Below are positions 21,821-40,032 of a stretch of DNA of 64,000 bases, one piece after another. How positions within the stretch are numbered: position 1 is the first letter of the stretch; each line of letters opens with the position of its first letter. A program made the position numbers and the translations under genes. Below the pieces are notes generated by a model. It worked only from the letters and a program-made list of their open reading frames with translations. It was not told where the DNA came from and ran no database searches. The stretch is from a virus: IMG/VR virus record IMGVR_UViG_3300034069_000634, positions 1 through 64,000 of that record; one strand, given 5' to 3'.

Positions 21821-21852
21821 ACCCCGCCTCGGGCTTCCAGGCGGGGTCTTTT
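21821..21852 (+). terminator. rho-independent terminator of the rightward structural block
   Basis: A 9-bp stem (ACCCCGCCT / AGGCGGGGT) with a 9-nt loop is followed by CTTTT. It lies between convergent gene blocks. Confidence 0.65.
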
Positions 21853-21857
21853 CGTAT

Positions 21858-24033: not shown

Positions 24034-24038
24034 GATTC

Positions 24039-24245
24039 TTACTCCATCCCGAGTTCGTCGAGTTTAGCCAGGACCTTCCGGACGACCGCGTCGCGGTTCG
24101 CGAGCCGGGGATCGCCGGACGAGAGGAGCCGCGCCGTGGCGGCGTAGATCGCGTCGAGTAGGCGGACCTCCTCCTGATAGTCAGCCAATTGCTGCGCCTC
24201 GTAGGCGCGGGCGATGGCGTCGGATTCTTCGATCTGATGGGTCAT
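24039..24245 (-). CDS. hypothetical protein
   Basis: 68-aa ORF. Confidence 0.45.
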   Translation of the reverse strand: MTHQIEESDAIARAYEAQQLADYQEEVRLLDAIYAATARLLSSGDPRLANRDAVVRKVLAKLDELGME

Positions 24246-24248
24246 GGT

Positions 24249-24422
24249 TCAGGCTCCGATCTTGGAGAGGCGTCGCGCGAGGCGAGCGGTGTATCCGGCA
24301 GCGAGGTCGGCGCGGAGGCGGTGAGCCTCGGCCAGGGCGCGGAGGTCGCCGGCCCGGTACTCGACCGAGCGGAGGACGGCATTCAGGCGGTTCACGAGGA
24401 CCGCGGAGACCGAGTCTGTCAC
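24249..24422 (-). CDS. small hypothetical protein (57 aa)
   Basis: GTG start overlapping the upstream stop (GTGA). Below the ORF-track cutoff. Confidence 0.3.
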   Translation of the reverse strand: MTDSVSAVLVNRLNAVLRSVEYRAGDLRALAEAHRLRADLAAGYTARLARRLSKIGA

Positions 24423-24532
24423 CGGTCGTCTCCGCGATTGTCAAAGAAATTGAAGATTGCCCAGAGAGCGAGGGCGGGGCTCATGCCGAGGCCCGCACAG
24501 ACGAAGGCGGTGATTTCGGGGTGATGGGACAC
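24419..24532 (-). CDS. small hydrophobic protein (37 aa)
   Basis: A GGAGGA SD lies 7 nt before the GTG. It is the first ORF after promoter motif A. Confidence 0.25.
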   Translation of the reverse strand: MSHHPEITAFVCAGLGMSPALALWAIFNFFDNRGDDR

Positions 24533-24562
24533 TGTCGTATCCTCCGTTCGGGTACGAGGAGG

Positions 24563-24594
24563 AGTAAACCTGATCCCGACGAAAAAGAAAAGCG
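24563..24594 (-). promoter_or_regulatory. early promoter motif A: CGCTTTTCTTTT-N14-TTTACT
   Basis: One of 9 instances. An A-tract lies upstream. It sits 31 nt before the first start codon of the unit. Confidence 0.55.
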
Positions 24595-24650
24595 TTTTTT
24601 CGTCAGACTCGGTATTTTTTACGGTGTCCCGGGGTGATTCGGCTAGGGCC

Positions 24651-24956
24651 TCACCACTCCTCGATCTCCTCGGACTTCCGGCGCCGGTCCTCGATCTGCT
24701 CGTCGCGCGCCCGACGTTTGTAATCGTAAACCTCAGATCGGGTCATCATCCGCCAGTCGTCGGCGAGCGCGCGGAGTGGTTCGATCGGCTGACCGAGGGC
24801 CATTAGGATCGCAAGCGGCTCGATTTCAGGCGTGATTGACCAGTCCGGATATTTCGGAAGACCCTTCACGGAGAAGACCGCCTCGACGCCGGCCTCATCG
24901 GAGACGACATAGAAGTCGAGGCCCATCTCGACGCCATCAGGCAAATTCCCATTCAT
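24651..24956 (-). CDS. hypothetical protein
   Basis: 101-aa ORF. Confidence 0.5.
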   Translation of the reverse strand: MNGNLPDGVEMGLDFYVVSDEAGVEAVFSVKGLPKYPDWSITPEIEPLAILMALGQPIEPLRALADDWRMMTRSEVYDYKRRARDEQIEDRRRKSEEIEEW

Positions 24957-25165
24957 CAGCGCTTCCCCGCAAAAATCCCAAACAGCCAGTTCCCGACGCG
25001 CTTCGAGAGCGTGTCAGGGTACTGGACCGGCTTCATCGCACCGTAGCGGAGCGCGCAGTCGGTTTTCGGGCAGTGCTCCCGGCGCTCTTTCGTGTCGAAC
25101 AGGCCACACTTCGGACAGATATTCCGTTTCGCACCGTCGGTGATTCTCGATCTCGGATCAGGCAT
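24956..25165 (-). CDS. zinc-ribbon protein
   Basis: CPKC..C..C pattern. A GGAGGTGA SD is present. Confidence 0.5.
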   Translation of the reverse strand: MPDPRSRITDGAKRNICPKCGLFDTKERREHCPKTDCALRYGAMKPVQYPDTLSKRVGNWLFGIFAGKR

Positions 25166-25404
25166 CACTCACCTCCCAAGGCATATTCTGCCTTCCGGCC
25201 GCGACCGAGTTCCGACGAGCGGATGACCGGCCGCGGATCGTTCGAGGTCTTGAACCGCAGATACCGCATGATCGCGGAGATCGACGAGCGCCAGTAAGTC
25301 GGCCTCGGACGGTCGACGTAGAGGATCGCGGCGATCGCCTCCGCGTCGAGCGGGCCGCGTTCGAGCGCCTCCCGGATCTTTTCCTCGGACTTGGACAGTT
25401 TCAC
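25165..25404 (-). CDS. hypothetical protein (possible winged-helix)
   Basis: A GGAGG SD precedes a GTG start, which overlaps the SNF2 gene stop (GTGA). Confidence 0.45.
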   Translation of the reverse strand: MKLSKSEEKIREALERGPLDAEAIAAILYVDRPRPTYWRSSISAIMRYLRFKTSNDPRPVIRSSELGRGRKAEYALGGE

Positions 25405-27038
25405 GGTAGCGCCTCCAGCATCTCGCGATAATCGCCGATTCCGAGTTCCGATATACTCTTTTTTCTTTTCAGGTTCGCGAGAATCTTTCGGTCCCCGGAT
25501 CGGTTCGCGATCAGGTCGGTATGCGTGACGAGACCGCTCGCTCCGATCCGCTGGATCCGCTTCTCGCTCTGCCATCGATCGAGCGCTCGGTCGTCGTTCG
25601 AATAGTACAGGTCGGAGACGCACGCTCCCTGAAGGTTGAGGCCGGCGCCACCACATTGAGCATTTCCGACGAACACCTCGGCGCCCCGCGGCGAAAGGAA
25701 CGACTCGACGTTCTCGGCTCGCGCCTTGTCGGTCACGCCGCCGTGGTACTCGACGAACGTCCGTCCGATCCGGTCGAGGCGCTCGGCGATGAGCGCGATG
25801 TCCTGGCGGAACTTCGCCCAGATCACGATTTTCCGGCCGTCGTGCGCGTCGAGATACTCCTCCATCGCATTGAGCCGCGGGTTCTTGGCCGGCTCGACGA
25901 GGAGGTGAGCCCGACGATTCTCGTCGAGAACGAAGCCGTTCGAGATCTGTTGGATCTTAGAGGTCGCGACAGCCATGTTCGCGGCCGTAATCTCGGCACC
26001 GGATTCGAGTTCGGCGAGAAGCTCCTGTTTGAGCGCGCGCATCGCCGCGATCTGGCGCGGGTCGAGGTCGAAGGTCCACTCCTCGAAGACCGGCGGTAGG
26101 AGTCCGATGTCCTCCTGCGTCACCCGGAACGAGACCGGGTCGGTCAGACGCCGGAACTCGTCGATGTTGGTGTGGCCGACGACCTCCCGGCCCTCGTAAC
26201 CGCCCATCCGGCAGAAGCGTGCCCGGAAGGTCGTGACGTACTTGATCCCGAGGACCGACTCGTCGAGCCACTTCAACTGCGCCCATTCGTCGGTCAGGTC
26301 CTTGGCGATCGGCGTTCCGGTCAGGAGCGTTCGGACCGGGCTCGCGGCCTTCTTGCGGATCTCGTCCATCGCCCGCCAGCGCGCCGAGGCCGCGTTCTTG
26401 ATCTCCTGACTCTCGTCGGCGACGATGAACACCCGGCCGCGATGGGCAGTGACGAAGTCGAGCGCGGCGCGCTTGCCCTTCTCGGCCTTGGCGCCGTCAT
26501 AGTTGATCGCGAACACCTTCAGGCGCCCGTCCTTCACGAGAAGCGTCTCGGGAAGCCTGGACATCGGCCAGAAGGCACCGTCCCAGGCGTCGGAGCCGTA
26601 ATGCGCCGGGAATTGCTCGGCGATCCACTGCCGGTGCGGACCCTTCTTCGAGACGACGAGGACGGCGTCGATCCGGTTCTCGGCCCAGAGTTGCCCGGCC
26701 CGGTCGATCGCGACCTTCGACTTGCCCGTTCCCATGTCCATGAACAGGGCGAACCGGTCGAGCATCCGCCGGAGCGCCTCATCCTGATGCGGGAACGCCT
26801 TCGTCTTCGACACGTACGGCGGTCGGTCGGATTCGAACGCCTCGACCTCGGGCGTCGGATCAGGGGCCGCGACGCCGGGGAGCATCCGGATCCGTTCGAG
26901 GTTGTGGCCAGTCGGCTCGAAGTGCAGTCCTGCGGGGCTCCAGCGCCGACGGCCTTCGAGCCGGCCGGCGACGAACAGGACGTCGGGCGTCGCCGCGGTC
27001 CGGAGGAGAGCGGAGGTCTCGGTGAGTTCGAGGATCAT
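25401..27038 (-). CDS. SNF2-family helicase
   Basis: Motifs MDMGTGKSKVAI (Walker A) and DESQEIKN (DExx), plus C-terminal helicase motifs. The ATG is coupled to the deaminase stop. Confidence 0.8.
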   Translation of the reverse strand: MILELTETSALLRTAATPDVLFVAGRLEGRRRWSPAGLHFEPTGHNLERIRMLPGVAAPDPTPEVEAFESDRPPYVSKTKAFPHQDEALRRMLDRFALFMDMGTGKSKVAIDRAGQLWAENRIDAVLVVSKKGPHRQWIAEQFPAHYGSDAWDGAFWPMSRLPETLLVKDGRLKVFAINYDGAKAEKGKRAALDFVTAHRGRVFIVADESQEIKNAASARWRAMDEIRKKAASPVRTLLTGTPIAKDLTDEWAQLKWLDESVLGIKYVTTFRARFCRMGGYEGREVVGHTNIDEFRRLTDPVSFRVTQEDIGLLPPVFEEWTFDLDPRQIAAMRALKQELLAELESGAEITAANMAVATSKIQQISNGFVLDENRRAHLLVEPAKNPRLNAMEEYLDAHDGRKIVIWAKFRQDIALIAERLDRIGRTFVEYHGGVTDKARAENVESFLSPRGAEVFVGNAQCGGAGLNLQGACVSDLYYSNDDRALDRWQSEKRIQRIGASGLVTHTDLIANRSGDRKILANLKRKKSISELGIGDYREMLEALP

Positions 27039-27643
27039 CGACGACCTTCCGCCTTGTTGAGGTTTTCGATCATGCGGCCAGCGAAGACGTACCAAGTCCG
27101 AAGGGCCATATCCTCCGGCTTCAGGATCTCGCGGGATTCGATCGTCGAGCCCGATTCGGAAAGACGGCCGATCGCGTAATCATCGAAGCTCCAGCGCCGC
27201 GGCTCGCCTGAGACCTCGATGAATGCTGCCCCGTACGAAACTCCGGCCTCTCTGAGCATGTCAGACGCCGCGTCCCATTGCTCGTTGTCACCGCCGAACC
27301 GGCCAGGGCCGTATGTGAACCGAGAAACTCCTGCGGCGATCATCTCGCCAGCACAGGCCGAGCAGCACCGATGCGTGCAGTACACGGACGTGTTCTGCGT
27401 TCGGATCCCGTGATATGCGGCGGTAGCGATCAGGTTCCGCTCGGCGTGGTTCGCGAACAGGTACTTCCGTGGCCGCTCCCGCCGATCCGGGAGATCGCGG
27501 ACGCCAGGGGCCGGGCCGTTGAACGCCGTGAGCAGGACGCTCCGGCCGTTCGGCGCAACGAGAACGGCGCCGACCTTGGTCGCGTCCTTCGACTTCCGCG
27601 CGGCGTGCTCGGCGAAGCCGTACAGGTACTCGTCCCATTCCAT
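27035..27643 (-). CDS. dCMP (deoxycytidylate) deaminase
   Basis: HAERNLI (HAE) and CTHRCCSACAGEM (PCxxC-like) zinc motifs. Confidence 0.75.
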   Translation of the reverse strand: MEWDEYLYGFAEHAARKSKDATKVGAVLVAPNGRSVLLTAFNGPAPGVRDLPDRRERPRKYLFANHAERNLIATAAYHGIRTQNTSVYCTHRCCSACAGEMIAAGVSRFTYGPGRFGGDNEQWDAASDMLREAGVSYGAAFIEVSGEPRRWSFDDYAIGRLSESGSTIESREILKPEDMALRTWYVFAGRMIENLNKAEGRR

Positions 27644-27669
27644 TTTTCGTCTCCTTCGGTTCGGCTGGG

Positions 27670-27837
27670 CGAGGTACGGGTTCCAATTTACGGCAGGGAT
27701 CCTGAAACTCTCTGGCGTTTATATACGTATATATTCTTCTTCTTTATATATAAGATAAGAATATATATCCATAATAGAAAACGAACTCGCACCAGGGAGT
27801 TTCAGGATTCGAGGGGTAAATTGGAACCCGTACCTCG
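27670..27837 (-). repeat. long-stem AT-cored palindromic element, copy 2
   Basis: Read on the - strand, its 3' arm is 40/40 identical to copy 1. It lies between a stop codon (27851) and the AAGGAG SD of the deaminase gene. Confidence 0.85.
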
Positions 27838-27850
27838 GTCGGGTTGGGCG

Positions 27851-28072
27851 TCAGTCGCGAGGCTTTGCGCGTGGCAGAGGCTGTCGCCACTCGATAAGAT
27901 CCATGGCGCATCCTCGGCAGAAATCGCCCTCCTCAAAGATTCCCCTTTCGCTATGAGGGTTTGAGACGTTGCGAGTCGCCGTTTCGAGACGCATCCAGCC
28001 CTTCGGGAGATCAGGAGCCGGAAGGCGAGAAATCTCCCCGCAGCGGTCACATTCGAAGATTCGCGCCATCAC
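27851..28072 (-). CDS. zinc-finger protein
   Basis: 73 aa with CDRC..CRGC. Confidence 0.5.
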   Translation of the reverse strand: MMARIFECDRCGEISRLPAPDLPKGWMRLETATRNVSNPHSERGIFEEGDFCRGCAMDLIEWRQPLPRAKPRD

Positions 28073-28368
28073 TTTGCCTCCCAGGTCACAGGAACGTCCG
28101 GTCCGACGAAGACGTGGATTCCTGGCTCGCCGAACGATTTATCTTCCGGTCCGAAAACGTCCTCGACCTCCGCACCATGATACGTGAGATCGAAGCGGCG
28201 CCCCTCGAACTCGATCGTCTGCGTGAACGTGATGCGCTCGCCGACGTAGATCGAGGACGGGTTGCCGTGCGGTCCGAAAGGGAGGATCAAGACACCGCGC
28301 GGAATCATCGGACGACCGACTTCTTCCTTCGAGACCCGGATCACCGGGCCGCCGTCATTTTTGCTCAT
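28069..28368 (-). CDS. hypothetical protein
   Basis: 99-aa 3' part of the 244-aa ORF-track entry. The upstream part is Arg/Pro-rich and looks like an artefact. Confidence 0.5.
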   Translation of the reverse strand: MSKNDGGPVIRVSKEEVGRPMIPRGVLILPFGPHGNPSSIYVGERITFTQTIEFEGRRFDLTYHGAEVEDVFGPEDKSFGEPGIHVFVGPDVPVTWEAK

Positions 28369-28382
28369 CGTCTCTTTCCTAT

Positions 28383-28607
28383 TCACGGCCGACCCGGGAC
28401 GACGACGTCCGGAGCATCGAGGTAGCACCGCGCGCGGCCGGTGAGCCGGACGCCATTGACGGTGCGGTCGTAGGTGAAGTCCTCTGCCATCGTCCGGCAG
28501 GTGATCTCGTTCGCGATCCGGACGGTCGCGGTCTCGATCGATGCGGAGGTCGAGCCTCCGCCGACGGCAAGGGTCGTGATGACGAGGATCCAGGGTGGCA
28601 TGTTCAT
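28383..28607 (-). CDS. small secreted protein
   Basis: MNMPPWILVITTLAVGGG N-terminal signal-like segment. ATGA-coupled. Confidence 0.45.
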   Translation of the reverse strand: MNMPPWILVITTLAVGGGSTSASIETATVRIANEITCRTMAEDFTYDRTVNGVRLTGRARCYLDAPDVVVPGRP

Positions 28608-29203
28608 TCTCCTTCCATGGGAACGGGGATAATCTTCCCCTTCGCGACTTCTCGGGACAGGTGATCCGTGTCTCCGCCGCGCTCCTTGAACTCGCGGTAC
28701 GTGATTCCGGGGTTTTCCTTGACGAGCCGGTACGACCGCTCGGACAGGCTCCCAGGTGTGAACCAGACGAGCACAGGAGAGGCGTACAGGCGGCACCCGG
28801 CATAATTCGACAGGATCCCCGTCGTTGACCCGTCCGGCCTGTGAGGGCGGATTTTCGGCGTTCCTGTGCCCTTCCGCTTGAGCTTGCCCTTCTGCGACGT
28901 CGGCTTGTGCGCGGGCATGACCGGCCGTGCGCTGTCCTCGACGAGGGGCGCCTTCTTCACACCCGAGGCCTTCAGGGCGAGGCGTGTCAGATCCCGGGCG
29001 GCCTTGATCGGCCGCGTGCCCAGGATCTCGTCGGCGACCTGTTCACCGATGTCCGGCAGGATCGCATGGATCGTGTTCTTGAACCGGTTGATCGACGAAA
29101 GCCGATCCGCCGTCGGCTCGACCGGCGCCTTGATCAGGATCTCGGTAAGCTGATCGACCTCCCGGCGACCGAGGATCGCTTTTGACAGGTCTTCGAGGGA
29201 CAC
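28604..29203 (-). CDS. hypothetical protein (basic linker, possible DNA binding)
   Basis: 199 aa, the first gene after promoter motif B. Confidence 0.5.
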   Translation of the reverse strand: MSLEDLSKAILGRREVDQLTEILIKAPVEPTADRLSSINRFKNTIHAILPDIGEQVADEILGTRPIKAARDLTRLALKASGVKKAPLVEDSARPVMPAHKPTSQKGKLKRKGTGTPKIRPHRPDGSTTGILSNYAGCRLYASPVLVWFTPGSLSERSYRLVKENPGITYREFKERGGDTDHLSREVAKGKIIPVPMEGE

Positions 29204-29242
29204 GGTCGGGGCTCCTGGGTTCGAGGCTTACGCCCCGGGACC

Positions 29243-29274
29243 TGTATAAGACCCCTGAGCGCAAAAGAAAAGCG
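29243..29274 (-). promoter_or_regulatory. early promoter motif B: CGCTTTTCTTTT-N14-TATACA
   Basis: Located 40 nt upstream of start 29203. Confidence 0.55.
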
Positions 29275-29278
29275 TATT

Positions 29279-29530
29279 TTAAGACGGCCACTTCGCCGCC
29301 GGGTCATACATCTCGCACCGCCGCGCGATGAACGACCAGACCTGACGCGCGAGCGTGTGGATCGGCCTCGGAGGCGTGTACGGGGCGATCGCTCCGTAAT
29401 ACTCGCACTGGCACCCGCGCCATTCCTCCTGGCCGACGCAAAGCTCGCACGCGTACGAAGGCCATGCGAGGTCGTAGATCAGCCGGTGAAGCCAGCTCAT
29501 ATAGAAGGCTGTGTCGCGTTCCTCGATCAT
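29279..29530 (-). CDS. hypothetical Cys-rich protein
   Basis: 83-aa ORF. Confidence 0.45.
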   Translation of the reverse strand: MIEERDTAFYMSWLHRLIYDLAWPSYACELCVGQEEWRGCQCEYYGAIAPYTPPRPIHTLARQVWSFIARRCEMYDPAAKWPS

Positions 29531-29760
29531 CGCGCGTCCTCCCTGCGGATCGCCTCGACGGCCTCCGCGTCGAGTTCGGCGCGCTTGTCCTCCTCGGCAA
29601 CGATCCTCTCCGGATTCGCTACATCCGTTCGGTCCATGTCCGGGAACGGCCGCTCAGGCGTCCCGTGCGTCTGCTTCTCGGGTCCACCGAGGTTCTCGAT
29701 CGTCATCGGTCGGCCTTCGAGGTCGGGCCGCGGCGCGGGGCCGTCCGGGATATCGTTCAT
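29527..29760 (-). CDS. hypothetical acidic protein
   Basis: 77 aa, an internal start within the 136-aa ORF-track entry. Confidence 0.4.
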   Translation of the reverse strand: MNDIPDGPAPRPDLEGRPMTIENLGGPEKQTHGTPERPFPDMDRTDVANPERIVAEEDKRAELDAEAVEAIRREDAR

Positions 29761-29762
29761 GG

Positions 29763-29870
29763 CTACCAAGTCCAGATGATGCGGCCGGCGACCGCGGTTG
29801 CGAGGATCCAGAGCGCGACCGTCGCGGCGAGCGCTCCGAGGACGGCGTAGAGGGGCGGGCGGCGTTTCAC
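29763..29870 (-). CDS. small membrane protein (35 aa)
   Basis: One hydrophobic helix. The GTG start overlaps the upstream stop. Confidence 0.3.
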   Translation of the reverse strand: MKRRPPLYAVLGALAATVALWILATAVAGRIIWTW

Positions 29871-30301
29871 GATTTCGCCTCGTCGACCGTGATCTTCTCG
29901 TCGGCCCATTCGATAGGCCACAGACGGATATGATCATGATCTTTCCGGGTTTTCTTTATGTCATCTTGCGTTCCTCCATCGATCACACTGAGCTTCGGCC
30001 GTTCGATCCGCTCGCCGGCCTGCACCTCCGGATCCGCGATCTCCATCCCGAGCGCCTCGCGCCCTATGATGCGGAGCGCGGCGAGGTAGCCGAGTTGAAA
30101 GTCGCTGTCGGCCGGGTCGTTGTCGAAGCTGGCGAGCGCCTGGGTGATGTAGGCGCGGCCGGCGTTTGTTCGGCGCTCGTCGAGGGCTTTAACGAAGGCC
30201 GGGAGGTAGCCCCGGACGATCAGGCCCCAGACCTCTTCCTTGATCGTCCACCAATCTACGTGGCGGATCGCTTCCGCATGTGCGTGTTCGGTATCGTTCA
30301 T
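29867..30301 (-). CDS. hypothetical protein
   Basis: 144-aa ORF. Confidence 0.5.
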   Translation of the reverse strand: MNDTEHAHAEAIRHVDWWTIKEEVWGLIVRGYLPAFVKALDERRTNAGRAYITQALASFDNDPADSDFQLGYLAALRIIGREALGMEIADPEVQAGERIERPKLSVIDGGTQDDIKKTRKDHDHIRLWPIEWADEKITVDEAKS

Positions 30302-30351
30302 CAGATCCTCCGTTCGAGAGCCGAGGCCCGAAGGCCCCGGCGGGTGACTAT

Positions 30352-31854
30352 TTATTCCACGAATACTAGCTCTTCTTGTGCTCTAGTCACAGCTACGTAG
30401 TAAAGATTGTGTTCTTGAAGTAGAGCCCAAGCCTTCTTCGCCGCCTTCGACGGGCAGCGGGAGGAGTGCTCAAACAGGTAGACCCTCGGCCACTCGCGGC
30501 CCTTCGAGCGGTGATAGGTCGCGAGAACGATCGCACCCTTCGCGTCGTCGGCGAACAGGCGGTCGATGAACTCGCGCACGTCGGCGACGCCGGTTTTGCC
30601 CGAGGCGATCACGGCGTTGCAGACCTCGACCAGCGTGCCGACCCGGTCCTCGACCTCCTCGGCCTTGGCGTCGTTGCCCTTCGCCATGGCCTTCTGGATC
30701 TCGCGCTCGCGATAGTCGTCGAGCTTGTTCAGGAGCGCCGAGACGGTCGAGACCTTCCACCGGCCGGCGAGCGCCTTCAGGCCATCGCCGATCGCTCGAC
30801 CCTCGACCTTCGCGGGCTTGCCCGAGCGGATCAGGGCGTAGGCGGTCTTCACGAGCGGCGCAGTGTTCCGGCAGAGGATCGCGTCGCCGGCCTTCAGGTC
30901 GTCGGGGAGCTTGGTGACGCGTGAGACCTTGCCCTCGGGTGCCTCGGGAGCGGCCTCGATGTCCGGGACCAGGGTCTTGGCGACCTCGACGACGGCCTTC
31001 GGGCAACGCCATGTCACCGACAGCGGCAGGACTGTGGCGTCGAGGCTCTCGATCAGGTTCGGAAGCGCGGCGGCGTCGGCGCCGGAGAAGCCGTAGATCG
31101 CCTGCCGGTCGTCGCCGACGACGATCATTCGGCCGCCGTTGCGCTTCACGAACTTGCGGGCGAGCGCCTGACGGGCGCGGGAGAGATCCTGGGCCTCGTC
31201 GAGGAAGACGATGTCCTTGCCGAACTTGACCGTTAAGTTCTTCACGAGCGGGAACAGGATCATGTCGTCGAAGTCGACGACGTCGGTCTGAGCGAGCGAG
31301 GCCCGGTAGATCGAGCGCGCCGCGGCGACGACGTCGGCCGCCTCGGAGGTGTCGTCGAGGCCGTTGACGTCAAAGTGGTCGGCGAGGTCGAACCAGGGAC
31401 GGTCGTCGTTCACCGGGAGATCAGAGAAGAATCCAAAGCCGGCCTGCTTGGCGTAGCGCACGAGCGAGATGATCTGAGCGCGATAAGTCGAATAGACCTC
31501 GATGTTCGAGATCGACGCCGCCTCATCGACGAGCGCCTCGACCTTCTTCTCGTTGACCTTCGGCTTGAACGCGTACTTCAGGAGACCGAAGCCGAGGCCG
31601 TGCAGGGTCGAGGCCTGGACCGAGCGCCAGTCGTCGTGACCGGCCTTCTTGAGCTTTTCGGCGACCTCGGTCGCGATCGCCTTATTGAACGCGCAGACCA
31701 GCACCTCGGCCCGCGGGTTGGCGCGCCGGACGGCATCAACGCCGAGGAGGATCGTCGAGGTCTTGCCGCACCCGGCGCGGGCAACGAGCGCGAGGTTCGA
31801 GGTCGAGCCGGTCAGGGCGTCAAGGAAGGCGGTTTGCTGGACGGTCGGGGTCAT
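30352..31854 (-). CDS. UvrD/PcrA-like SF1 helicase
   Basis: Motifs ARAGCGKTST (Walker A), VVGDDRQAIYGFSGA, TYHRSKGREW and YVAVTRAQEEL. Confidence 0.8.
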   Translation of the reverse strand: MTPTVQQTAFLDALTGSTSNLALVARAGCGKTSTILLGVDAVRRANPRAEVLVCAFNKAIATEVAEKLKKAGHDDWRSVQASTLHGLGFGLLKYAFKPKVNEKKVEALVDEAASISNIEVYSTYRAQIISLVRYAKQAGFGFFSDLPVNDDRPWFDLADHFDVNGLDDTSEAADVVAAARSIYRASLAQTDVVDFDDMILFPLVKNLTVKFGKDIVFLDEAQDLSRARQALARKFVKRNGGRMIVVGDDRQAIYGFSGADAAALPNLIESLDATVLPLSVTWRCPKAVVEVAKTLVPDIEAAPEAPEGKVSRVTKLPDDLKAGDAILCRNTAPLVKTAYALIRSGKPAKVEGRAIGDGLKALAGRWKVSTVSALLNKLDDYREREIQKAMAKGNDAKAEEVEDRVGTLVEVCNAVIASGKTGVADVREFIDRLFADDAKGAIVLATYHRSKGREWPRVYLFEHSSRCPSKAAKKAWALLQEHNLYYVAVTRAQEELVFVE

Positions 31855-31896
31855 CGATCGATCTCCGGCGGGGCTCTCGTCACCGGCCCCGCAACC

Positions 31897-31928
31897 TGTA
31901 TGCGCCCATTCGAGCGAAAAGAAAAGCG
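31897..31928 (-). promoter_or_regulatory. early promoter motif C: CGCTTTTCTTTT-N14-CATACA
   Basis: Located 43 nt upstream of the helicase ATG, directly after a terminator. Confidence 0.55.
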
Positions 31929-31934
31929 TCTTTT

Positions 31935-31967
31935 TGGAAAAAAGAGAGAGGGCGGACGCGCCCTCTC
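31935..31967 (-). terminator. rho-independent terminator
   Basis: A GAGAGGGCG/CGCCCTCTC stem with a 4-nt loop is followed by TCTTTTTT on the - strand. Confidence 0.6.
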
Positions 31968-31971
31968 CGCC

Positions 31972-32184
31972 CTACTCGACCGGATTGAGCATGGCGCCCA
32001 ACGCTTCGTTCGCTTCTCGCAGCCGAGCGTTTTCCTCACGCAACGCAGCCACGTCATTGCAGAGCGTAACGATGCTAAATCCGCTCGGCGCCCATTCTCG
32101 ATCAAGCGCCTTGCAGAGCAACTTTTCGACCCGAATTTGTAGCTGCGGGATGCTCTCGTTTTCCATGTTCGACTCCTCTCTCAT
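31972..32184 (-). CDS. coiled-coil protein
   Basis: 70-aa ORF. Confidence 0.45.
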   Translation of the reverse strand: MREESNMENESIPQLQIRVEKLLCKALDREWAPSGFSIVTLCNDVAALREENARLREANEALGAMLNPVE

Positions 32185-32189
32185 TTGCC

Positions 32190-33002
32190 CTAATACCCCG
32201 CCGCCTCCTTCAGACGGTCGAAGTAACTTTTCGGCAGGGTCAGGGTCACGGTGCCTTCGGTCTCATCGATATCAACCTCGGAGACGCGCAGCATTTCGCC
32301 GACGGCTTTCTTGAGCGAGGAGCGCGGCTCGCCACCCTCGACGTGCTTGGCTGTGGCGCGGGTCTTCCCGGCCTTCTTCGCGGTCTCGATGGCGCCAGCG
32401 AGATCGGACACGGCCTTGCCGGTGTCGCCCTCGGCCGCGCGAACGGTCTTCATCGCGAGGTCGGCAGAGACCTCGCCGGAGCGGACCATCGCCTTGACCT
32501 GTTCCGGGGCCGACTGAACTTCGAGCAACTGCACGACGCGCGTGCGGGTGATGCCGGTCTTCTTGGCGATCTCGCCCTCGTTCCAGCCGAGATCGAGGAG
32601 CTTCTTGAAGACCTTGCCCTTCTCGAACGGTGACAGCGGTTTGCTGGAGTTCCGGACGATCTGCGACAGGACGTGATCGGCCTCGGACGCGTACCGGGCC
32701 TCGGTCTGGACCGGGACGGTCTTGATCTCGGCTTTCAGGACGTCTCGGGCGTAGAGCGCTGCGGCGCGGCGACGGTGGCCGTTGGTGATGTAGGCGCGGC
32801 CGTCCTCCCAGATCGCCGTCATCGTCTCCTTCACGCCGACCTCGGCGATCGACTGCGCAAGCGCGAGATCGTCCTCGTCGTTCGGGTTGAAGTCGACGTC
32901 TCGGGCGTTCCAGCCCTGGCGGATGTGGAGGTCGTCGAGACTGATGCGGAACGTGTCCGAGCGGCCGGCGGCGATGCCCTGGATTCCGGTCTTCGTGGTC
33001 AT
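32190..33002 (-). CDS. parB: ParB-like nuclease-domain / partition-type protein
   Basis: ITNGHRRRAAAL (ParB box) plus an HTH (IAKKTGITRTRVVQLL). Confidence 0.7.
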   Translation of the reverse strand: MTTKTGIQGIAAGRSDTFRISLDDLHIRQGWNARDVDFNPNDEDDLALAQSIAEVGVKETMTAIWEDGRAYITNGHRRRAAALYARDVLKAEIKTVPVQTEARYASEADHVLSQIVRNSSKPLSPFEKGKVFKKLLDLGWNEGEIAKKTGITRTRVVQLLEVQSAPEQVKAMVRSGEVSADLAMKTVRAAEGDTGKAVSDLAGAIETAKKAGKTRATAKHVEGGEPRSSLKKAVGEMLRVSEVDIDETEGTVTLTLPKSYFDRLKEAAGY

Positions 33003-33038
33003 GATGGTCTCCAGCGGGGTCGATGATGCCCCGCCGGA

Positions 33039-33070
33039 GGTATGGCACGCCCGGGATTAAAAGAAAAGCG
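33039..33070 (-). promoter_or_regulatory. early promoter motif D: CGCTTTTCTTTT-N14-CATACC
   Basis: Located 37 nt upstream of the parB-like ATG. Confidence 0.55.
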
Positions 33071-33110
33071 CCTTTTTAGGGAGAGGAGGCGGATGCCCCC
33101 TCCGCCCTGC

Positions 33111-33425
33111 TCATGTGTCTGTAAGTGCGGCGGACAGGACCTCATCCTCGTTCAGCCGCTCGTTTGAGCTATCCATCTCCGGCCAGAACAGTACGACGGC
33201 GTGAGGCGTTTCAGCCGGTTTTTCTTCGATGGGTATTATGTTACGCAGCGCAAGAAGCGCGTGCGAAAGTTCAAGCCATGCGTTCTGTGAAACGAATTGG
33301 CTTTCCATCCCTCCGTTGAATGTGCTGTCCACCAACAAGTCCGCCTTACGCACCACATCGAGTACACGAGCATATGCCTCTGGGTTTAATTTATTGACGG
33401 GGTTCATGGTCTGTATGCGCTCCAT
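33111..33425 (-). CDS. orphan protein in an AT-richer patch
   Basis: 104 aa with a weak SD. Base composition visibly differs from its neighbours. Confidence 0.4.
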   Translation of the reverse strand: MERIQTMNPVNKLNPEAYARVLDVVRKADLLVDSTFNGGMESQFVSQNAWLELSHALLALRNIIPIEEKPAETPHAVVLFWPEMDSSNERLNEDEVLSAALTDT

Positions 33426-33481
33426 CTGGCATCGTTTCAGGGTGAGGTGAATGGCCTGAAAACGGCTTCACCCCTCAATCC

Positions 33482-33588
33482 GCCCCACATTCTGCGCGGC
33501 CTGGACGGATGCCGCCTGCCGGGCCTTCGCGCTCTGCCGCCGCCTTGGGAATGTGGGGTAAAATGGCTGGTTCCGTTACCCCACATTC
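33482..33588. repeat. CCCCACATTC motif x3 (two direct, one inverted) including a 13-bp-stem hairpin
   Basis: Motif copies lie at 33483-33492, 33549-33558 (inverted) and 33579-33588. The hairpin arms are 33549-33561 and 33576-33588. Confidence 0.6.
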
Positions 33589-33890
33589 TACCCGCCATTC
33601 CTCGTGCGCTCGCAAGCCTCTCGGTACAGGTTGACCCATTGCGGCTGCGACGCTCCGGCCCCAACAACGCTGTTCGCCCGCTCGTATGCCCAAAGGACCG
33701 GTGCCCGCTCTAGCTTGTCTGTGGCGCTCGTGAAGATCTGCGCCGGGTCGTCCTTGCTGAAGGTCCGAGCCAAGGCGTCTCGCACGTCCCGCACGTCAGC
33801 TTCTAAGGCTGCATAGTCGGCCCGCAACTGCTCGTTCTCGGCCTTTAGGCGCTCAATCTCCTCGCGCATGTACCCGACTGACCGGCTCAT
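33588..33890 (-). CDS. coiled-coil protein
   Basis: An AGGAGG SD precedes ATG 33890. This is the 100-aa 3' part of the 222-aa ORF-track entry. Confidence 0.5.
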   Translation of the reverse strand: MSRSVGYMREEIERLKAENEQLRADYAALEADVRDVRDALARTFSKDDPAQIFTSATDKLERAPVLWAYERANSVVGAGASQPQWVNLYREACERTRNGG

Positions 33891-33933
33891 CAAACCTCCT
33901 GCTATTTTGAAGTGGGCGGATTTCCCCTCTGCC

Positions 33934-34215
33934 CTACAGCACGCCCATGTCGGCCCGCGCCGAAGCCGTGCGGTCGGCGCACTCGGCCCGGCGCTCGACC
34001 GCCTCGGCGTTGTCCCCATAGTCGCTGTCCCCGCACCGGGTGCAGACGTAGACCGGCACAGAGCAACAGCAGCCCCATTCGCTGCACCCGGCATTGCGCC
34101 CGCCAGCATGTTGCATGTCGCAACCGACTTCCCGGCACGTTGCGGTGGCCGCGTACCGCTCCAATCGAGCAACCTCCGCGCGGGCCGCTTCCAGCTTGTC
34201 GGCAAACTCTCGCAT
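33934..34215 (-). CDS. Cys-rich (zinc-binding?) protein
   Basis: 93 aa containing many Cys residues. Confidence 0.5.
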   Translation of the reverse strand: MREFADKLEAARAEVARLERYAATATCREVGCDMQHAGGRNAGCSEWGCCCSVPVYVCTRCGDSDYGDNAEAVERRAECADRTASARADMGVL

Positions 34216-34256
34216 GGTGCTCTCTCCCTGTTCGACGGAGTTCCCGTCCGCCCCAT

Positions 34257-34457
34257 CTAAACCCGAACCCTGATCCGCGCCCCCTGGATCGAGCCGTGTC
34301 CGCGCAGGATCCGGCGCGCCCAGCCCGCGGCGTCGCGGACCTCGCGCGTTCGAGTCCTGGCGAAGAACTCCGCGACTTCGGGGATCTCGTCGGGGCGGAC
34401 GTACAGGGTTCGACGGCCGCGCTTCGCTTCGGCGTAGAGGCGCTCGACGGGGGTCAC
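34257..34457 (-). CDS. hypothetical protein
   Basis: 66 aa, GTGA-coupled. Confidence 0.4.
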   Translation of the reverse strand: MTPVERLYAEAKRGRRTLYVRPDEIPEVAEFFARTRTREVRDAAGWARRILRGHGSIQGARIRVRV

Positions 34458-34690
34458 TGTCCCGACCTCATCAATCGAAGATCGAGAAAGGCCATTCCGA
34501 CGAGCGTGTTGACGGGAAGGTTATACGCCTTTGCGATTCGCTGAAGATCCTTCATCAGAAAATCCGAATGATCCTTGACGATATTCTCGTACGGCGATTT
34601 TGTTATGTCAGAGATCGCGACGACCCCCTTTCTGAACAGAGTGACGGTTTGGCGAACGTCCTCGGCCGCGTTCTCATGACGCTCATCCAT
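34454..34690 (-). CDS. hypothetical protein
   Basis: A GGGAGG SD precedes ATG 34690. 78 aa. Confidence 0.45.
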   Translation of the reverse strand: MDERHENAAEDVRQTVTLFRKGVVAISDITKSPYENIVKDHSDFLMKDLQRIAKAYNLPVNTLVGMAFLDLRLMRSGQ

Positions 34691-34952
34691 TGGATTGCCT
34701 CCCGACGCACATAATCTCGACAGATGCGCGAACCGATTTTTCAAGCGCGTCGATTCGCTCCGAGATCTCGTCGAGCCGGGCGACGACGTATTGCGAAGCC
34801 GCGCCGAATCTTGGTTGATCAATGACCTTCGGCGGCGTCCAACGGCCACTGGAACCGGCGAGAACGAACTCGGCGCATCCATCGTTTCCCAATGCCTCAC
34901 CGTTGTAATGCTCTTCGGTCCAGTCCCCACACGCAGCACATTTTAGTTTCAT
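34683..34952 (-). CDS. hypothetical protein
   Basis: 89-aa ORF. Confidence 0.45.
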   Translation of the reverse strand: MKLKCAACGDWTEEHYNGEALGNDGCAEFVLAGSSGRWTPPKVIDQPRFGAASQYVVARLDEISERIDALEKSVRASVEIMCVGRQSNG

Positions 34953-35200
34953 CGCTCATCCTCACCGTATCGCTTGCGTTCCTCCTCCGAACTGAGCCGG
35001 AAGAAGTCGCCCCAATCGAACACGCGCGTGCAGTCCGACGGCCGATCACCGATCCGTGATCCGGTGAAATAGAAGACCGTCTCCGGATTCTCGACGTCGT
35101 ATAGAATTAGTGGCGGCCGACGTCTGGAGCACCACCATTGCTGATAATCCGGAAGTATCACCCGAATCCCAGGCGTATTGATCAATTCTTCTTCGGTCAT
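34949..35200 (-). CDS. hypothetical protein
   Basis: 83 aa, ATGA-coupled at both ends. Confidence 0.45.
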   Translation of the reverse strand: MTEEELINTPGIRVILPDYQQWWCSRRRPPLILYDVENPETVFYFTGSRIGDRPSDCTRVFDWGDFFRLSSEEERKRYGEDER

Positions 35201-35469
35201 CGCTCGTCCTCCTCTCGCCCACGCCCGCCCAGATAGCTCTCGCCCTCGGGCAGGAACCCGCCGCGCCGGAGCGCGGCCCATCCGACCGGGCCGACCGGCC
35301 GGTAGCCCGCCTCGATGAGCCGGCGGATCTCGTCGGTCGAGGCGGCCTTTTTCGTCAAGACCGATTCGCCGTCGCCCTCGCGGATGAGGAGCGTGCCGAT
35401 GACGGCGCGCGATGAGGCCTGGAGACGTCGCCGCCGGGCGACGGGTTCGTTGAGGGCGTGGTCGGTCAT
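35197..35469 (-). CDS. hypothetical protein
   Basis: 90-aa ORF. Confidence 0.45.
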   Translation of the reverse strand: MTDHALNEPVARRRRLQASSRAVIGTLLIREGDGESVLTKKAASTDEIRRLIEAGYRPVGPVGWAALRRGGFLPEGESYLGGRGREEDER

Positions 35470-35807
35470 TTCGGATTCTCCAGTCCGACGATTCGCCGTT
35501 CGGCGTCCTCTCGAAGCCGAACGCAGTCGGCGAGTCTTTTTCGGAGGATTCGTTCCTCGCTCTTCCTCCTCTCCCGGTACGCGATGAGAGCGTCCTTCGG
35601 ATCGAGGTGCGCGTATTGCTTTTGCGCGGACGTGTTCACGAAGCGCGACCCGTTTCCGAGGCCGACCCGGAAACCCTTCGGCGTGAATTTCTCGACGAAG
35701 AACGTTCGGATGACGATCTCCGGAACGCCGGGGATCGGGTCATCGTATTGATCGACGCCGCCGCTATACGTGACGGTCTCGTACCGGAAGGCGCGCGTTT
35801 CGGCCAT
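35466..35807 (-). CDS. hypothetical protein
   Basis: 113-aa ORF. Confidence 0.5.
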   Translation of the reverse strand: MAETRAFRYETVTYSGGVDQYDDPIPGVPEIVIRTFFVEKFTPKGFRVGLGNGSRFVNTSAQKQYAHLDPKDALIAYRERRKSEERILRKRLADCVRLREDAERRIVGLENPK

Positions 35808-36097
35808 TACCGATTCCTCCTCGGCGCCGGCTGCGAGAAGTCCGGGATCCCGCCTTCTGTCTTCGACGGCGATGGCTCACGGACCGGGGCGTGTGGCGAT
35901 GTCGCTAAGCGGGCTTCCAAAGCGGCGCCCGTGTAGCGGGCGAAAGGGACGAAGACAGTTGAGACCGATCCGCCGTTTTCCCGCCATGCAACGATCGTTC
36001 GGTAGATCCATCCTCCAGGGACCGAGATTCGATCAATAAATGTCGAAACTTTGTCTCCAGGCTCGGCGTAGACAGGCATCCAAGGGCGTTCGCTCAT
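35807..36097 (-). CDS. hypothetical protein
   Basis: 96 aa, an internal start ATGA-coupled to the HNH gene. Confidence 0.45.
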   Translation of the reverse strand: MSERPWMPVYAEPGDKVSTFIDRISVPGGWIYRTIVAWRENGGSVSTVFVPFARYTGAALEARLATSPHAPVREPSPSKTEGGIPDFSQPAPRRNR

Positions 36098-36495
36098 CTC
36101 GTTCTCCTCTTCGGATAGCGCCGCTCGACGGCGCGCTTCAGGGCCGCGATGCCGCGGGTCTTCTTGGGATCGCCGAGCCGGACGGCACGGCGCTCGATCT
36201 TTCGGGCCTGATTCACCGTCTTCGGGACGACCTCGATGTGATCCGGGTTTACGCACAGCGAGAACTCGCACGTATGATCCCGGTCGTGCTCCGGCGGGCA
36301 ATCTCGGCCGCCGATCGCCTCACAGGCGAAGCGATGGGCGCGCACGGTCCGGTTGCCCAGACGGAAGCTCCCGTAGAACTTCCGGTTGCCCTTGCCGCGC
36401 GAGCGGGCGCCGGACCAGAACCAGCAACCGCTCGGGAGCTTCTCGACATAGCGGTAGAACCGCGCGACATCGGTGTCGGTGAAGGCGAGGGTCAT
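36094..36495 (-). CDS. HNH endonuclease (genome-typical GC)
   Basis: Contains HDRDHTCEFSLCVNPDHIEVVPKTVN. Confidence 0.7.
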   Translation of the reverse strand: MTLAFTDTDVARFYRYVEKLPSGCWFWSGARSRGKGNRKFYGSFRLGNRTVRAHRFACEAIGGRDCPPEHDRDHTCEFSLCVNPDHIEVVPKTVNQARKIERRAVRLGDPKKTRGIAALKRAVERRYPKRRTR

Positions 36496-36498
36496 CAA

Positions 36499-36672
36499 TT
36501 ATGCCTTAACCGGGACGACGCGGACGTTGTAAATGCCGTCGGTCTCGATCAAATCGCGATGCTTCGCGTTGAACGCCTTGCTCCCGCGGATGAAGTCGGC
36601 GCTCGCACGGCCCCAGGTGTCGTCGTAGCTGCGGGTCTCGAAGTAGACCTTGATCTTGGCGTTCTTGGTCAT
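36499..36672 (-). CDS. small hypothetical protein (57 aa)
   Basis: The first ORF after promoter motif E. Below the ORF-track cutoff. Confidence 0.35.
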   Translation of the reverse strand: MTKNAKIKVYFETRSYDDTWGRASADFIRGSKAFNAKHRDLIETDGIYNVRVVPVKA

Positions 36673-36719
36673 GGTCTCGGCTCCATCAGGAGAGGTCCTG
36701 GGCTCGCGGCCCCGAAGTG

Positions 36720-36751
36720 AGTAGACATGATCCGAGCGGAAAAGAAAAGCG
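36720..36751 (-). promoter_or_regulatory. early promoter motif E: CGCTTTTCTTTT-N14-TCTACT
   Basis: Located 48 nt upstream of ATG 36672. Confidence 0.5.
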
Positions 36752-36752
36752 T

Positions 36753-37016
36753 TTATTTGGAGACGAGAGCCGACCGCGTCATCGCGATGTCTCCGAGTTG
36801 ACGGGCGGCCTGGACGAATATCGTGCGCCCATCGGCCGGACCCATGACCGCGACAGCGTCACGGATCATCTGTTCCGCGGTATCGAGGCTGGAGAGCTTC
36901 AAGGGGTTGCAAATGACATACTGACCGGTCGCCAATGCGAATTTGGTCGGACGCGTCAGAACCTCGGCGCCTTGCATGATCGGCTGAAAGGTCTTCGCGG
37001 CGTGATTGTCGGTCAT
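36753..37016 (-). CDS. hypothetical protein, single-gene unit
   Basis: 87 aa. Its promoter and leader are shared with 37094..37336. Confidence 0.5.
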   Translation of the reverse strand: MTDNHAAKTFQPIMQGAEVLTRPTKFALATGQYVICNPLKLSSLDTAEQMIRDAVAVMGPADGRTIFVQAARQLGDIAMTRSALVSK

Positions 37017-37059
37017 CGGTTCGGTTCCTTCTCTCCGGCTCGTCTCCGGCCGTGGCTCT

Positions 37060-37091
37060 ATATAGCGCCATCCCATCGGAAAAGAAAAGCG
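37060..37091 (-). promoter_or_regulatory. early promoter motif F: CGCTTTTCTTTT-N14-CTATAT
   Basis: Located 44 nt upstream of ATG 37016. Part of a duplicated 78-nt cassette. Confidence 0.6.
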
Positions 37092-37093
37092 TT

Positions 37094-37336
37094 TTATTCG
37101 ATGACATACTCAAGCTGGCCGGGAAACAGGTAGAACGAGCCGTTACCGTTCCGGACGCGGTAGCCTTCGCCGTCCGCCTTCAGGAGCCACTCGCCAGCCT
37201 TCTCGAAGCGGCGGTAGACCTTCCGGTCGAGAACCATGACGCGGAGAGCGGTCCGGACGACGAGGCGACCGCCGCCCGCGATGTAAGCCAGGGCCTCGTC
37301 GGTGGAGTTCGCGGGAACGGGGCTGGTGGTAGCCAT
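37094..37336 (-). CDS. hypothetical protein, single-gene unit
   Basis: 80 aa. This is the leftward-transcribed gene nearest the divergent promoter region. Confidence 0.5.
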   Translation of the reverse strand: MATTSPVPANSTDEALAYIAGGGRLVVRTALRVMVLDRKVYRRFEKAGEWLLKADGEGYRVRNGNGSFYLFPGQLEYVIE

Positions 37337-37379
37337 CGGATCAGTTCCTTCTCTCCGGCTCGTCTCCGGCCGTGGCTCT

Positions 37380-37411
37380 ATATAGCACCATCCCGACAAA
37401 AAAGAAAAGCG
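37380..37411 (-). promoter_or_regulatory. early promoter motif G: CGCTTTTCTTTT-N14-CTATAT
   Basis: Located 44 nt upstream of ATG 37336. It is divergent from motif I. Confidence 0.6.
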
Positions 37412-37461
37412 CCTTTTCCCGGTTCAGGTACGTTTTTTTTCGTGCGAAATCGCGAAAAAAG

Positions 37462-37493
37462 CGCTTTCCTTTTCCGCCGGGATCGGTTTAGAT
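37462..37493 (+). promoter_or_regulatory. early promoter motif I: CGCTTTCCTTTT-N14-TTAGAT (rightward)
   Basis: Located 59 nt upstream of ATG 37552, oriented toward the replication block. Confidence 0.55.
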
Positions 37494-37551
37494 CTTCGTC
37501 CACCGATCTCGCCGACGGTTTCCAAATCGGCGAACACAAGCGAGTAGAATC

Positions 37552-38912: not shown

Positions 38913-38979
38913 TCCCGAATCGTGACCTGACCCCGGCGTCCGCGCCGGGCGTCTTTGGCCGTGCGCGAAGGAGCTTTCG

Positions 38980-40031: not shown

Positions 40032-40032
40032 G

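Follow-up and report, generated by a model that had tools for sequence, protein, structure and literature searches.

The stretch of viral DNA analysed here, which we call the window, is 64,000 nucleotides (nt) long (positions 1-64,000 of IMG/VR record IMGVR_UViG_3300034069_000634); it represents most of a phage contig of 68,037 nt and is marked by a T-rich 12-nt box that recurs at nine intergenic sites, each time within a larger cassette that resembles a promoter. The guanine plus cytosine (G+C) content of the window is about 62%. Pfam and PHROG scans identified genes for replication proteins (DNA polymerase III alpha, a DUF5906 primase/helicase, a UvrD helicase and an SNF2 helicase), for a ParB-HTH (helix-turn-helix) protein, dCMP deaminase, methylases, an exonuclease, Nmad5 and a PNKP-type phosphatase, as well as for the structural and packaging proteins of the phage, including an intein-bearing large terminase, a portal protein and a DUF3383 sheath protein. 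The genes run leftward from about 37.4 kilobases (kb) down to 21.9 kb and rightward from position 37552, so that the two sites lying between these blocks, designated G and I below, would together form a divergent control region.

The exact 12-mer CGCTTTTCTTTT is present seven times in the window, always on the minus strand (at 24583, 29263, 31917, 33059, 36740, 37080 and 37400), and two further copies that share the cassette context differ from it at a single position and lie on the plus strand, at 37462 (CGCTTTCCTTTT) and 52827 (AGCTTTTCTTTT). The candidate promoter cassettes built around these nine boxes, and the genes that follow them, are:

24563-24602, minus strand: cassette A, with the box at 24583-24594, a 14-nt spacer and the hexamer TTTACT; the orthologous site is kept in the related contig L005
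24532, minus strand: GTG start codon of the small open reading frame (ORF) behind cassette A
29243-29282, minus strand: cassette B, with the box at 29263-29274 and the hexamer TATACA, upstream of a gene for 199 amino acids (aa) at 28604-29203
31897-31936, minus strand: cassette C, with the box at 31917-31928 followed by GGGCGCATACA, upstream of the UvrD-type helicase gene at 30352-31854; the site nearest to the family consensus
33039-33078, minus strand: cassette D, with the box at 33059-33070 and the hexamer CATACC, upstream of the ParB-HTH gene at 32190-33002
36720-36759, minus strand: cassette E, with the box at 36740-36751 and the hexamer TCTACT, upstream of a 57-aa ORF at 36499-36672 and an HNH gene
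37060-37099, minus strand: cassette F, with the box at 37080-37091 and the hexamer CTATAT, upstream of the ORFan at 36753-37016
37380-37419, minus strand: cassette G, with the box at 37400-37411 and the hexamer CTATAT, the leftward half of the divergent pair, upstream of the ORFan at 37094-37336
37454-37493, plus strand: cassette I, with the variant box CGCTTTCCTTTT at 37462-37473 and the hexamer TTAGAT, the rightward half of the divergent pair, preceding the replication block that starts at 37552; variant box and hexamer are kept in L005 and L245
52819-52858, plus strand: cassette H, with the variant box AGCTTTTCTTTT at 52827-52838 and the weak hexamer TAAGGG, preceding small ORFs ahead of the packaging genes

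When at most one mismatch was allowed, 12 matches to the 12-mer were found in the window, against 0.27 expected from dinucleotide-preserving shuffles (the largest count in any shuffle was 2); the other one-mismatch copies, at 16587, 50351 and 61180 on the minus strand, have neither the A-tract nor the hexamer context. A weight matrix of 46 nt, extending from -10 to +24 around the box, recovered the nine sites only, with a very large score gap to all others, and both the shuffle count and the matrix thus reject a chance origin. All nine sites are intergenic, are co-oriented with the next gene and follow a fixed layout, consisting of an A-tract, the box, 14 nt and a CATAMn-like hexamer, whose second position is A in three of the nine sites at this spacing. 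The end of the 12-mer is separated from the start codon by 50-67 nt at sites A-G, by 78 nt at I and by 51 nt at H (the last two counted by hand), and the stop codon of the preceding gene falls within the A-tract at B, E and F. An earlier note on this DNA had reported nine 12-mers pointing at the adjacent genes, each with an A-rich run directly upstream and a listed hexamer after 14 nt, and all of this was recovered, with the correction that the single mismatch it flagged at site I has an unflagged counterpart at site H. Its distance of 31-59 nt to the first gene likewise agrees with the 30-47 nt (A-G), 58 nt (I) and 31 nt (H) that we count between hexamer and start codon, and no exact copy of the 12-mer was found in coding sequence, as it had stated.

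The A-tract occupies positions of about -46 to -39 at all nine sites, if the box is placed at -35 as described below. UP elements are A/T-rich tracts upstream of the -35 hexamer, with a proximal subsite at about -46 to -38, and are bound by the C-terminal domain of the alpha subunit of RNA polymerase. Protein identity to the window is 73-86% for contigs L001 and L005, about 86-89% for L245 and about 68% for L246, and orthologous sites could be compared among the window, L005, L245 and L246. Over these 13 pairwise comparisons, identity was 100% in the 10-nt core of the box, 74% in the A-tract and 71% in the hexamer; it fell to 44-54% for the spacer and to 33% for positions further upstream. Conservation of core, A-tract and hexamer around a diverged spacer is the pattern expected of -35, -10 and UP-like elements. 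The rightward promoter of the relatives keeps a variant box, CTTTCCTTTT, together with TTAGAT.

The distribution of conserved positions also bears on the proposal that the box is mainly an operator, to whose A-tract and T-tract the ParB-HTH protein (32190-33002) or a small 79-aa protein would bind, switching off or coordinating the early promoters at a later stage, the actual promoter then being a weak -10 element and its flanks. There is partial dyad symmetry in the A-tract/CGC/T-tract arrangement (AAAAG.CGC.TTTT), ParB-HTH genes are found in the window, L005 and L246, and true palindromic operators are part of the repeated promoter cassettes of the sister phages L004 and L006. In plasmid RK2, the ParB-family protein KorB acts on repeated operators to repress many promoters. 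However, conservation is strongly asymmetric, the T-rich half being invariant and the A-rich half variable, and for this reason we disfavour the operator as the main function; in addition, the fixed gene orientation and hexamer distance are not required of operators, and most of the box-carrying contigs open to examination gave no sign of either candidate regulator. We therefore consider this explanation very unlikely, although ParB-HTH or the 79-aa protein may possibly act on an operator in addition to the promoter function of the sites.

A second clue to the role of the box comes from the region upstream of UvrD, which was compared at equal distance to the start codon in about 40 relatives. 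Some of these carry hexamers of the ordinary kind, such as TTGACA-N17-TAAAGT in L008 and TTGCAA-N17-TATATT in L009, and L017, L020 and L036 have TTTACA or TTTACT with the same N17 spacing. L019 has CTTTACTTCT-N14-CATACT, which differs from the box at two of ten positions and contains a normal TTTACT -35 hexamer, and the window, L005, L010 and others have CTTTTCTTTT-N14-CATACA. Since the -35 hexamers of the relatives have the same position and spacing, the box would cover the -35 hexamer, in the form TTTTCT, and be followed by a 17-nt spacer. Promoter spacing of 17 nt is conserved across bacterial phyla (PMC8407463). Over 35 sites the downstream hexamer is composed of C25/T10, A24, T28, A27, A19/C14 and T14/A10/C7/G4, and is preceded immediately by a conserved TGGCGC block; from this composition we take it to be probably a -10 element of the sigma-70 type in which the -7 position is unconstrained. 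Housekeeping promoters of alphaproteobacteria are likewise unconstrained at -7 (PMC7703639, PMC8407463), and the alphaproteobacterial-like -10 element offers a clue to the host but does not prove its identity. The proposal of the earlier note that the sites split the leftward block into transcription units thus gains support from their position, orientation, geometry and conservation, and from their equivalence to canonical promoters in relatives.

The full element, AAAA..CTTTTCTTTT-N9-TGGCGCATAA, was found in dozens of related metagenomic phage contigs with a G+C content of 41-65%, sampled from marine, freshwater and soil metagenomes, and an alignment of 32 sites from many contigs reads aaAAAaacg-CTTTTCTTTT-N9-aTGgcGcaTAa. 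The 18 specified bases of CTTTTCTTTT-N10-GGCGCATA are present in 15 IMG/VR stretches, of which 12 are on contigs with replication genes in common with the window (30-62% identity; G+C 41-64%); the remaining three lie within an ORF (one) or point in the wrong direction (two) and look like chance matches. In a larger metagenome collection, about 40 of 103 matches, among them Tara Oceans contigs, bear by inspection the hallmarks of the family (an A-tract, a T before GGCGC and family genes nearby), the others being random and including the tail of a bacterial terminator. This last copy belongs to a bacterial lineage (L253, L256, L287, L291, L322 and L251) in which CTTTTCTTTT-N10-GGCGCATA is preceded by a GC-rich terminator hairpin and followed, 8-10 nt past CATA, by the ATG of a gene read from its sequence as a ymdB-like phosphoesterase; it is probably a coincidence and was counted as a single event, and CATA used as a -10 element there would imply a leaderless transcript. 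A loose scan of viral contigs with AAAANN plus the 12-mer returned mostly random AT-rich matches, and a literature search for the sequence of the box returned a terminator table only. In a tree of the helicases, phages with the box are scattered among relatives in which canonical -35 hexamers or other stereotyped cassettes are used instead.

Taken together, these observations are most likely explained if the nine sites are promoter cassettes with an unusual T-rich -35 region that is widespread in a family of uncultured phages. We further propose, with a probability of roughly 0.55, that the sites with the T-rich box are early or middle promoters read directly by the host RNA polymerase carrying its housekeeping sigma factor. 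From the data above we infer both that transcription starts at these sites and which protein reads the box. According to this proposal, the early or middle units, namely the leftward ORFan and replication genes and the rightward replication genes, would each be transcribed from a box cassette, in which an A-tract resembling an UP element precedes a box whose TTTTCT takes the place of the -35 hexamer. A 17-nt spacer and a -10 hexamer of the CATAMn type would follow, with a predicted start about 7 nt past the hexamer, usually at the foot of a GC-rich stem-loop, ahead of a strong ribosome-binding site. Host RNA polymerase and housekeeping sigma factor would suffice without a phage specificity factor, either because the A/T-tracts compensate for the poor -35 hexamer or because the host polymerase has a different -35 preference.

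Several points weigh against direct use of the box by the host enzyme. TTTTCT (box positions 4-9, 17 nt from the hexamer) matches TTGACA at only three of six positions, and an invariant box of 10-12 nt together with a conserved TGGCGC exceeds what a housekeeping sigma factor usually demands. The composite is nearly confined to one phage family, across G+C contents of 41-65% and across marine, freshwater and soil habitats; invariance of box and TGGCGC, restriction to a family and a wide range of G+C would be natural for a co-inherited factor, and the distribution is easier to reconcile with such a phage factor than with an oddity of a single host lineage. In addition, the box copy of L001 at the position equivalent to H abuts the ribosome-binding site and leaves no room for a -10 element, and the search for a reading factor described below covered approximately 75 ORFs of the 64-kb window, about 4 kb of the 68-kb genome lying outside it. 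The L001 copy, an exact 12-mer at 19125-19136, is followed 2 nt later by AGGAGG and 14 nt later by the ATG that starts a homologue of 53042-53200; relative to the window about 190 nt are missing at this locus, including ORF 52890-53045. This copy is probably a relic of a deletion, and shows that a box can survive where the other promoter parts are lacking.

The earlier note had inferred that a dedicated factor reads the sites, and one can envisage a phage-encoded or virion-delivered activator, a sigma-like protein, a sigma appropriator or a conserved alternative sigma factor of the host. The non-canonical and invariant box, the second conserved block TGGCGCATAA and the retention of the 18-base composite at 41-65% G+C and 30-60% protein identity, essentially within one family, are all compatible with such a factor, as are the equally stereotyped but different cassettes of sister lineages, some with palindromic operators (L004, L006, L028/L029, L017/L036/L020). 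The geometry is also loosely like that of promoters for FliA (an 8-mer, N11 and GCCGATAA) and sigma-32 (CCCTTGAA, N13-17 and CCCCATnT) and like the T4 MotA box. Nevertheless, the consensus sequences of sigma-54, sigma-32 and sigma-28 had to be rejected as models of the box, their key bases being absent or misspaced. The Pfam and PHROG scans of the approximately 75 ORFs revealed no RNA polymerase, sigma factor, MotA- or AsiA-like protein, activator or family-wide regulator, and no gene confined to box-carrying relatives was found within loci of +/-10 kb, most of them partial.

Individual candidates for a specificity factor fared no better. The Pam3_gp34-like protein adjoining the control region gave a beta-rich model with weak OB/SSB-like structural matches only; it is widespread in phages without the box and common in unrelated Pseudomonas phages. 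DUF7307, encoded by the next gene, was modelled as a long helix plus an alpha/beta domain and had no structural or DNA-binding match, so that neither of the two conserved proteins beside the divergent promoters is sigma-like or of the HTH type, and the protein encoded at 50251-50748 in the rightward block looks like a PD-(D/E)XK nuclease. Two other small proteins are possible regulators. One is the 79-aa protein (25165-25404, minus strand) encoded just downstream of the SNF2 helicase gene, which is winged-helix-like by eye and is conserved at 33-35% identity in the box-carrying contigs L268, L282, L299, L316 and L345, and could thus speak for a factor common to some box-carrying phages; the other is a Cys-rich protein of 70 aa (CPKCG...CPKTDC; 24956-25168, minus strand), whose gene follows.

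Matches to canonical sigma-70 promoters occur at chance level in 1-20000, 21000-40000 and 40000-59999, and with no second class of promoter found there, an activator could not be made by other means ahead of the firing of the box promoters. In the relatives the box moreover grades into normal -35 hexamers at equal spacing. As neither a phage factor nor another promoter class was found in the window, and because of this gradation, direct use by the host RNA polymerase is favoured, and we regard a requirement for a dedicated factor, the inference of the earlier note, as rather doubtful.

It is also conceivable, though unlikely in our opinion, that the cassettes constitute a new class of promoter, specific to one phage family and read otherwise than through the usual sigma-70 contacts with the -35 hexamer. 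This could take two forms. A family factor that has escaped recognition might read CTTTTCTTTT and TGGCGC; alternatively, the bases of the phage DNA might be modified, in which case the C-terminal domains of the alpha subunit would still recognise the A/T-tracts through the minor groove, whereas a TTGACA-type -35 hexamer would be read poorly through the major groove, and T at -7 bound poorly in its pocket. With regard to the second form, genes for Nmad5, for a PNKP-type phosphatase, for a dCMP deaminase and for MazG are present in the window. Either form, if true, would explain why an element of 28 nt has been kept in phages of 41-65% G+C.

The proteins in question, Nmad5, a PNKP-type HAD phosphatase, a PNK-like protein, dCMP deaminase and a MazG-like protein, are encoded at 38980-40031, 41071-41493, 27035-27643 and 22926-23300. 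This set suggests a DNA base-modification pathway, which could bear on how the T-rich boxes are read. L245 has ThyX at the place equivalent to the putative base-modification genes of the window.

Beyond the promoter parts proper, the cassettes have 5' leaders with recurrent stem-loops, and other structured features lie beside them:

31945-31968, minus strand: intrinsic-terminator-like hairpin and T-run, closing the ParB unit just upstream of cassette C
37434-37461: inverted repeat with A/T-tract arms (TTTTTTTCGTGCGAAATCGCGAAAAAAG) between the divergent cassettes G and I, its right arm being the A-tract of I; a similar repeat occurs in L005
37017-37059, minus strand: 5' leader of F, with the GC-rich stem-loop GGCCGG-AGACGA-GCCGG and a ribosome-binding site
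37337-37379, minus strand: 5' leader of G, a near-identical duplicate of the leader of F
31868-31892, minus strand: GC-rich stem-loop GCGGGGCC...GCCCCGC, starting about 5 nt past the hexamer of C, near the predicted transcript start

Recurrent GGGGC...GCCCC stems, which lack a T-run, begin about 5-7 nt past the hexamer in the cassettes B, C, D and E, as well as in relatives; in L005 a compensatory change from G-C to U-A is found at the base of the stem in the leader of C. The folding energies of the leader hairpins are no better than those of shuffled sequence, that of site D excepted. We would conjecture that the stems serve, for example, to stabilise the transcript.

From box to ATG (91 aligned nt), cassettes F and G share 92% identity, whereas the proteins encoded downstream are unrelated, and the ORFans behind G, F and E were not found in any relative examined, the closest included. 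Blocks of homology with L005 start and stop at cassettes, and the ParB gene, together with its own box promoter, is located upstream of the helicase gene in the window and downstream of it in L005. These arrangements suggest that promoter, 5' leader and ribosome-binding site form portable modules at the borders of exchangeable gene blocks, which may be duplicated independently of the genes they drive.

The location of cassettes at the borders of homology blocks and the duplication of one of them could also be taken to mean that the repeats are not transcription signals at all, and are instead sequences for recombination or shuffling, sites for replication or packaging, or the T-tails of terminators; the use of the same T-run as a terminator tail in an unrelated bacterial locus, and the L001 box without downstream promoter parts, point in the same direction. 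A recombination site would account neither for the strict co-orientation nor for the constant distances to hexamer and ribosome-binding site, nor would it explain why box, A-tract and hexamer are selectively conserved, and relatives have canonical promoters at the same position. As to terminator tails, a clear GC-rich hairpin stands shortly before the box at site C alone. The good terminator that the earlier note described there is indeed present, while the second hairpin it described, at site D, is weak at most when judged by eye. We hold this explanation to be extremely improbable, and a role as promoters is retained in what follows.

An Acb2/Tad1-type anti-defence (nucleotide sponge) gene is found at 3344-3739 of L246, in the box-driven early leftward ORFan block; this fits the idea that the cassettes drive genes for host takeover and anti-defence. 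Sister phages have their own stereotyped repeated promoter cassettes, in L004 (19200-22750; TTGACC plus the palindrome CCTGATCATCAGG, eight copies), in L006 (9700-17500; TTAACACTAA-N3-TTAGTGTTAA, nine copies) and in L017/L036/L020 and L028/L029, further versions being GGGGTTTAC-N17-TTACnT or GCGTGTAAACGC. Repeated, lineage-specific control cassettes thus appear to be a trait of the whole phage family.

With regard to relatives and host, megablast with the window returned zero matches, no close cultured relative was found, and protein identity to cultured phages does not exceed 41%. Among these, DnaE was most similar (about 35% identity) to the proteins of phages of the Burkholderia BcepF1, Xanthomonas Carpasina and Serratia MyoSmar types, and UvrD (about 40%) to those of cyanophages and roseophages; Pseudanabaena phage Pan1, considered as a relative, proved to be an unrelated siphovirus. 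The window has zero tRNA genes that could serve as a host clue. Of two scans of genome contigs for the host, the first gave no match and the second gave phage contigs in metagenome-assembled genomes of conflicting phyla (Verrucomicrobia, Actinomycetota and Cellvibrionaceae); the helicase of the window is not on record.

The genome also contains other repeated or mobile sequences. A Hint/intein domain (residues ~388-656) interrupts the large terminase subunit (56027-58225), and four genes encode HNH-type homing endonucleases (36094-36498 on the minus strand; 42430-43077, 55494-56072 and 60940-61812 on the plus strand), at least the last three of which are situated in stretches of lower G+C; together these suggest a high load of selfish elements. 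Three copies of a low-G+C intergenic element of 158-168 nt (8851-9018, 27671-27836 and 50777-50934) have long terminal inverted repeats (GAGGTACGGGTTCCAATTTACG...CGTAAATTGGAACCCGTACCTC) and an AT-rich palindromic core (TATATTCTTATCTTCTTCTT...). This element resembles a miniature inverted-repeat transposable element or a structured RNA, and similar AT-rich cores are found at other positions in L001 and L005. No Rfam family matched it or any other part of the window.

If the cassettes are promoters, they provide a signature for the transcription units of a large family of uncultured, DnaE-encoding myophages with genomes of approximately 60-70 kb, and the element could help to link these phages to their hosts. 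The unusual -35 region would furthermore be a test case, both for the drift of promoter recognition by housekeeping sigma factors and for promoter-specificity factors of phages that have so far escaped recognition. It would also follow that portable promoter cassettes that shuffle ORFan genes are not limited to T4-type phages, from which such cassettes are known.

The closest published parallel is provided by the PeSL cassettes (promoter-early stem-loops) of the T4-type phages RB49 and phi1 (PMC2839356). In both systems, repeated intergenic units of about 80-100 nt consist of an A/T-rich upstream part, an early promoter (predicted in the case of the window), a stem-loop of the GGGG...CCCC type and a ribosome-binding site, and both are found in ORFan-rich variable regions, at the borders of modules that have been inserted, deleted or moved, and can be duplicated independently of genes. 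Differently from the window cassettes with their T-rich box at -35, PeSL promoters match the Escherichia coli sigma-70 consensus, and the PeSL stem-loop lies between or over the promoter's -35 and -10 parts and acts as a terminator, whereas that of the window lies in the leader past the -10 element. A further trait of PeSL cassettes is that mini-circles form when they recombine with one another. The PeSL phages belong to a family unrelated to the window phage.

Promoters of the sigma-70 type with an UP element, such as rrnB P1, share with the window the A-tract upstream of -35, the 17-nt spacer, an A at position 2 of the -10 element (in 24 of the 35 sites) and a predicted start 6-8 nt downstream, but the window has TTTTCT instead of TTGACA and an invariant stretch of 10-12 nt, and its TGGCGC upstream of the -10 element is not an extended -10 TGn motif. 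The CarD-assisted alphaproteobacterial promoters that lack -7T (PMC7703639, PMC8407463) resemble the window sites in the loose last position of the -10 element (T in 14 of 35), the A at -11 and the 17-nt spacing. The hexamer CTATAT of F and G can be counted as a further likeness. These promoters keep a -35 hexamer of the TTG type, unlike the box.

In the middle promoters of T4, which depend on MotA and AsiA, a T-rich box also replaces the -35 hexamer in front of a sigma-70-type -10 element. The box (TTTTCTTTT) agrees at seven of nine positions, aligned at the 3' end, with what we take to be the MotA box, tttTGCTTTA. The MotA box is separated from the -10 element by 12 +/- 1 nt, as compared with 14 nt in the window, and T4 has MotA and AsiA as well as separate early promoters, of which no counterparts were found in the window scans. 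Unlike T4 middle promoters, the window box would drive the very first genes beside the divergent control region. The cassettes of the sister phages (L004, L006, L017/L036/L020 and L028/L029) are found at the same genomic positions, in many copies per genome, and consist equally of a stereotyped extended -35 region, a -10 element, a leader hairpin and a ribosome-binding site. They differ in the -35 region itself, which is TTGACC with a palindrome, GGGGTTTAC, GCGTGTAAAC and so on, the version with the T-rich box being by far the most widespread.

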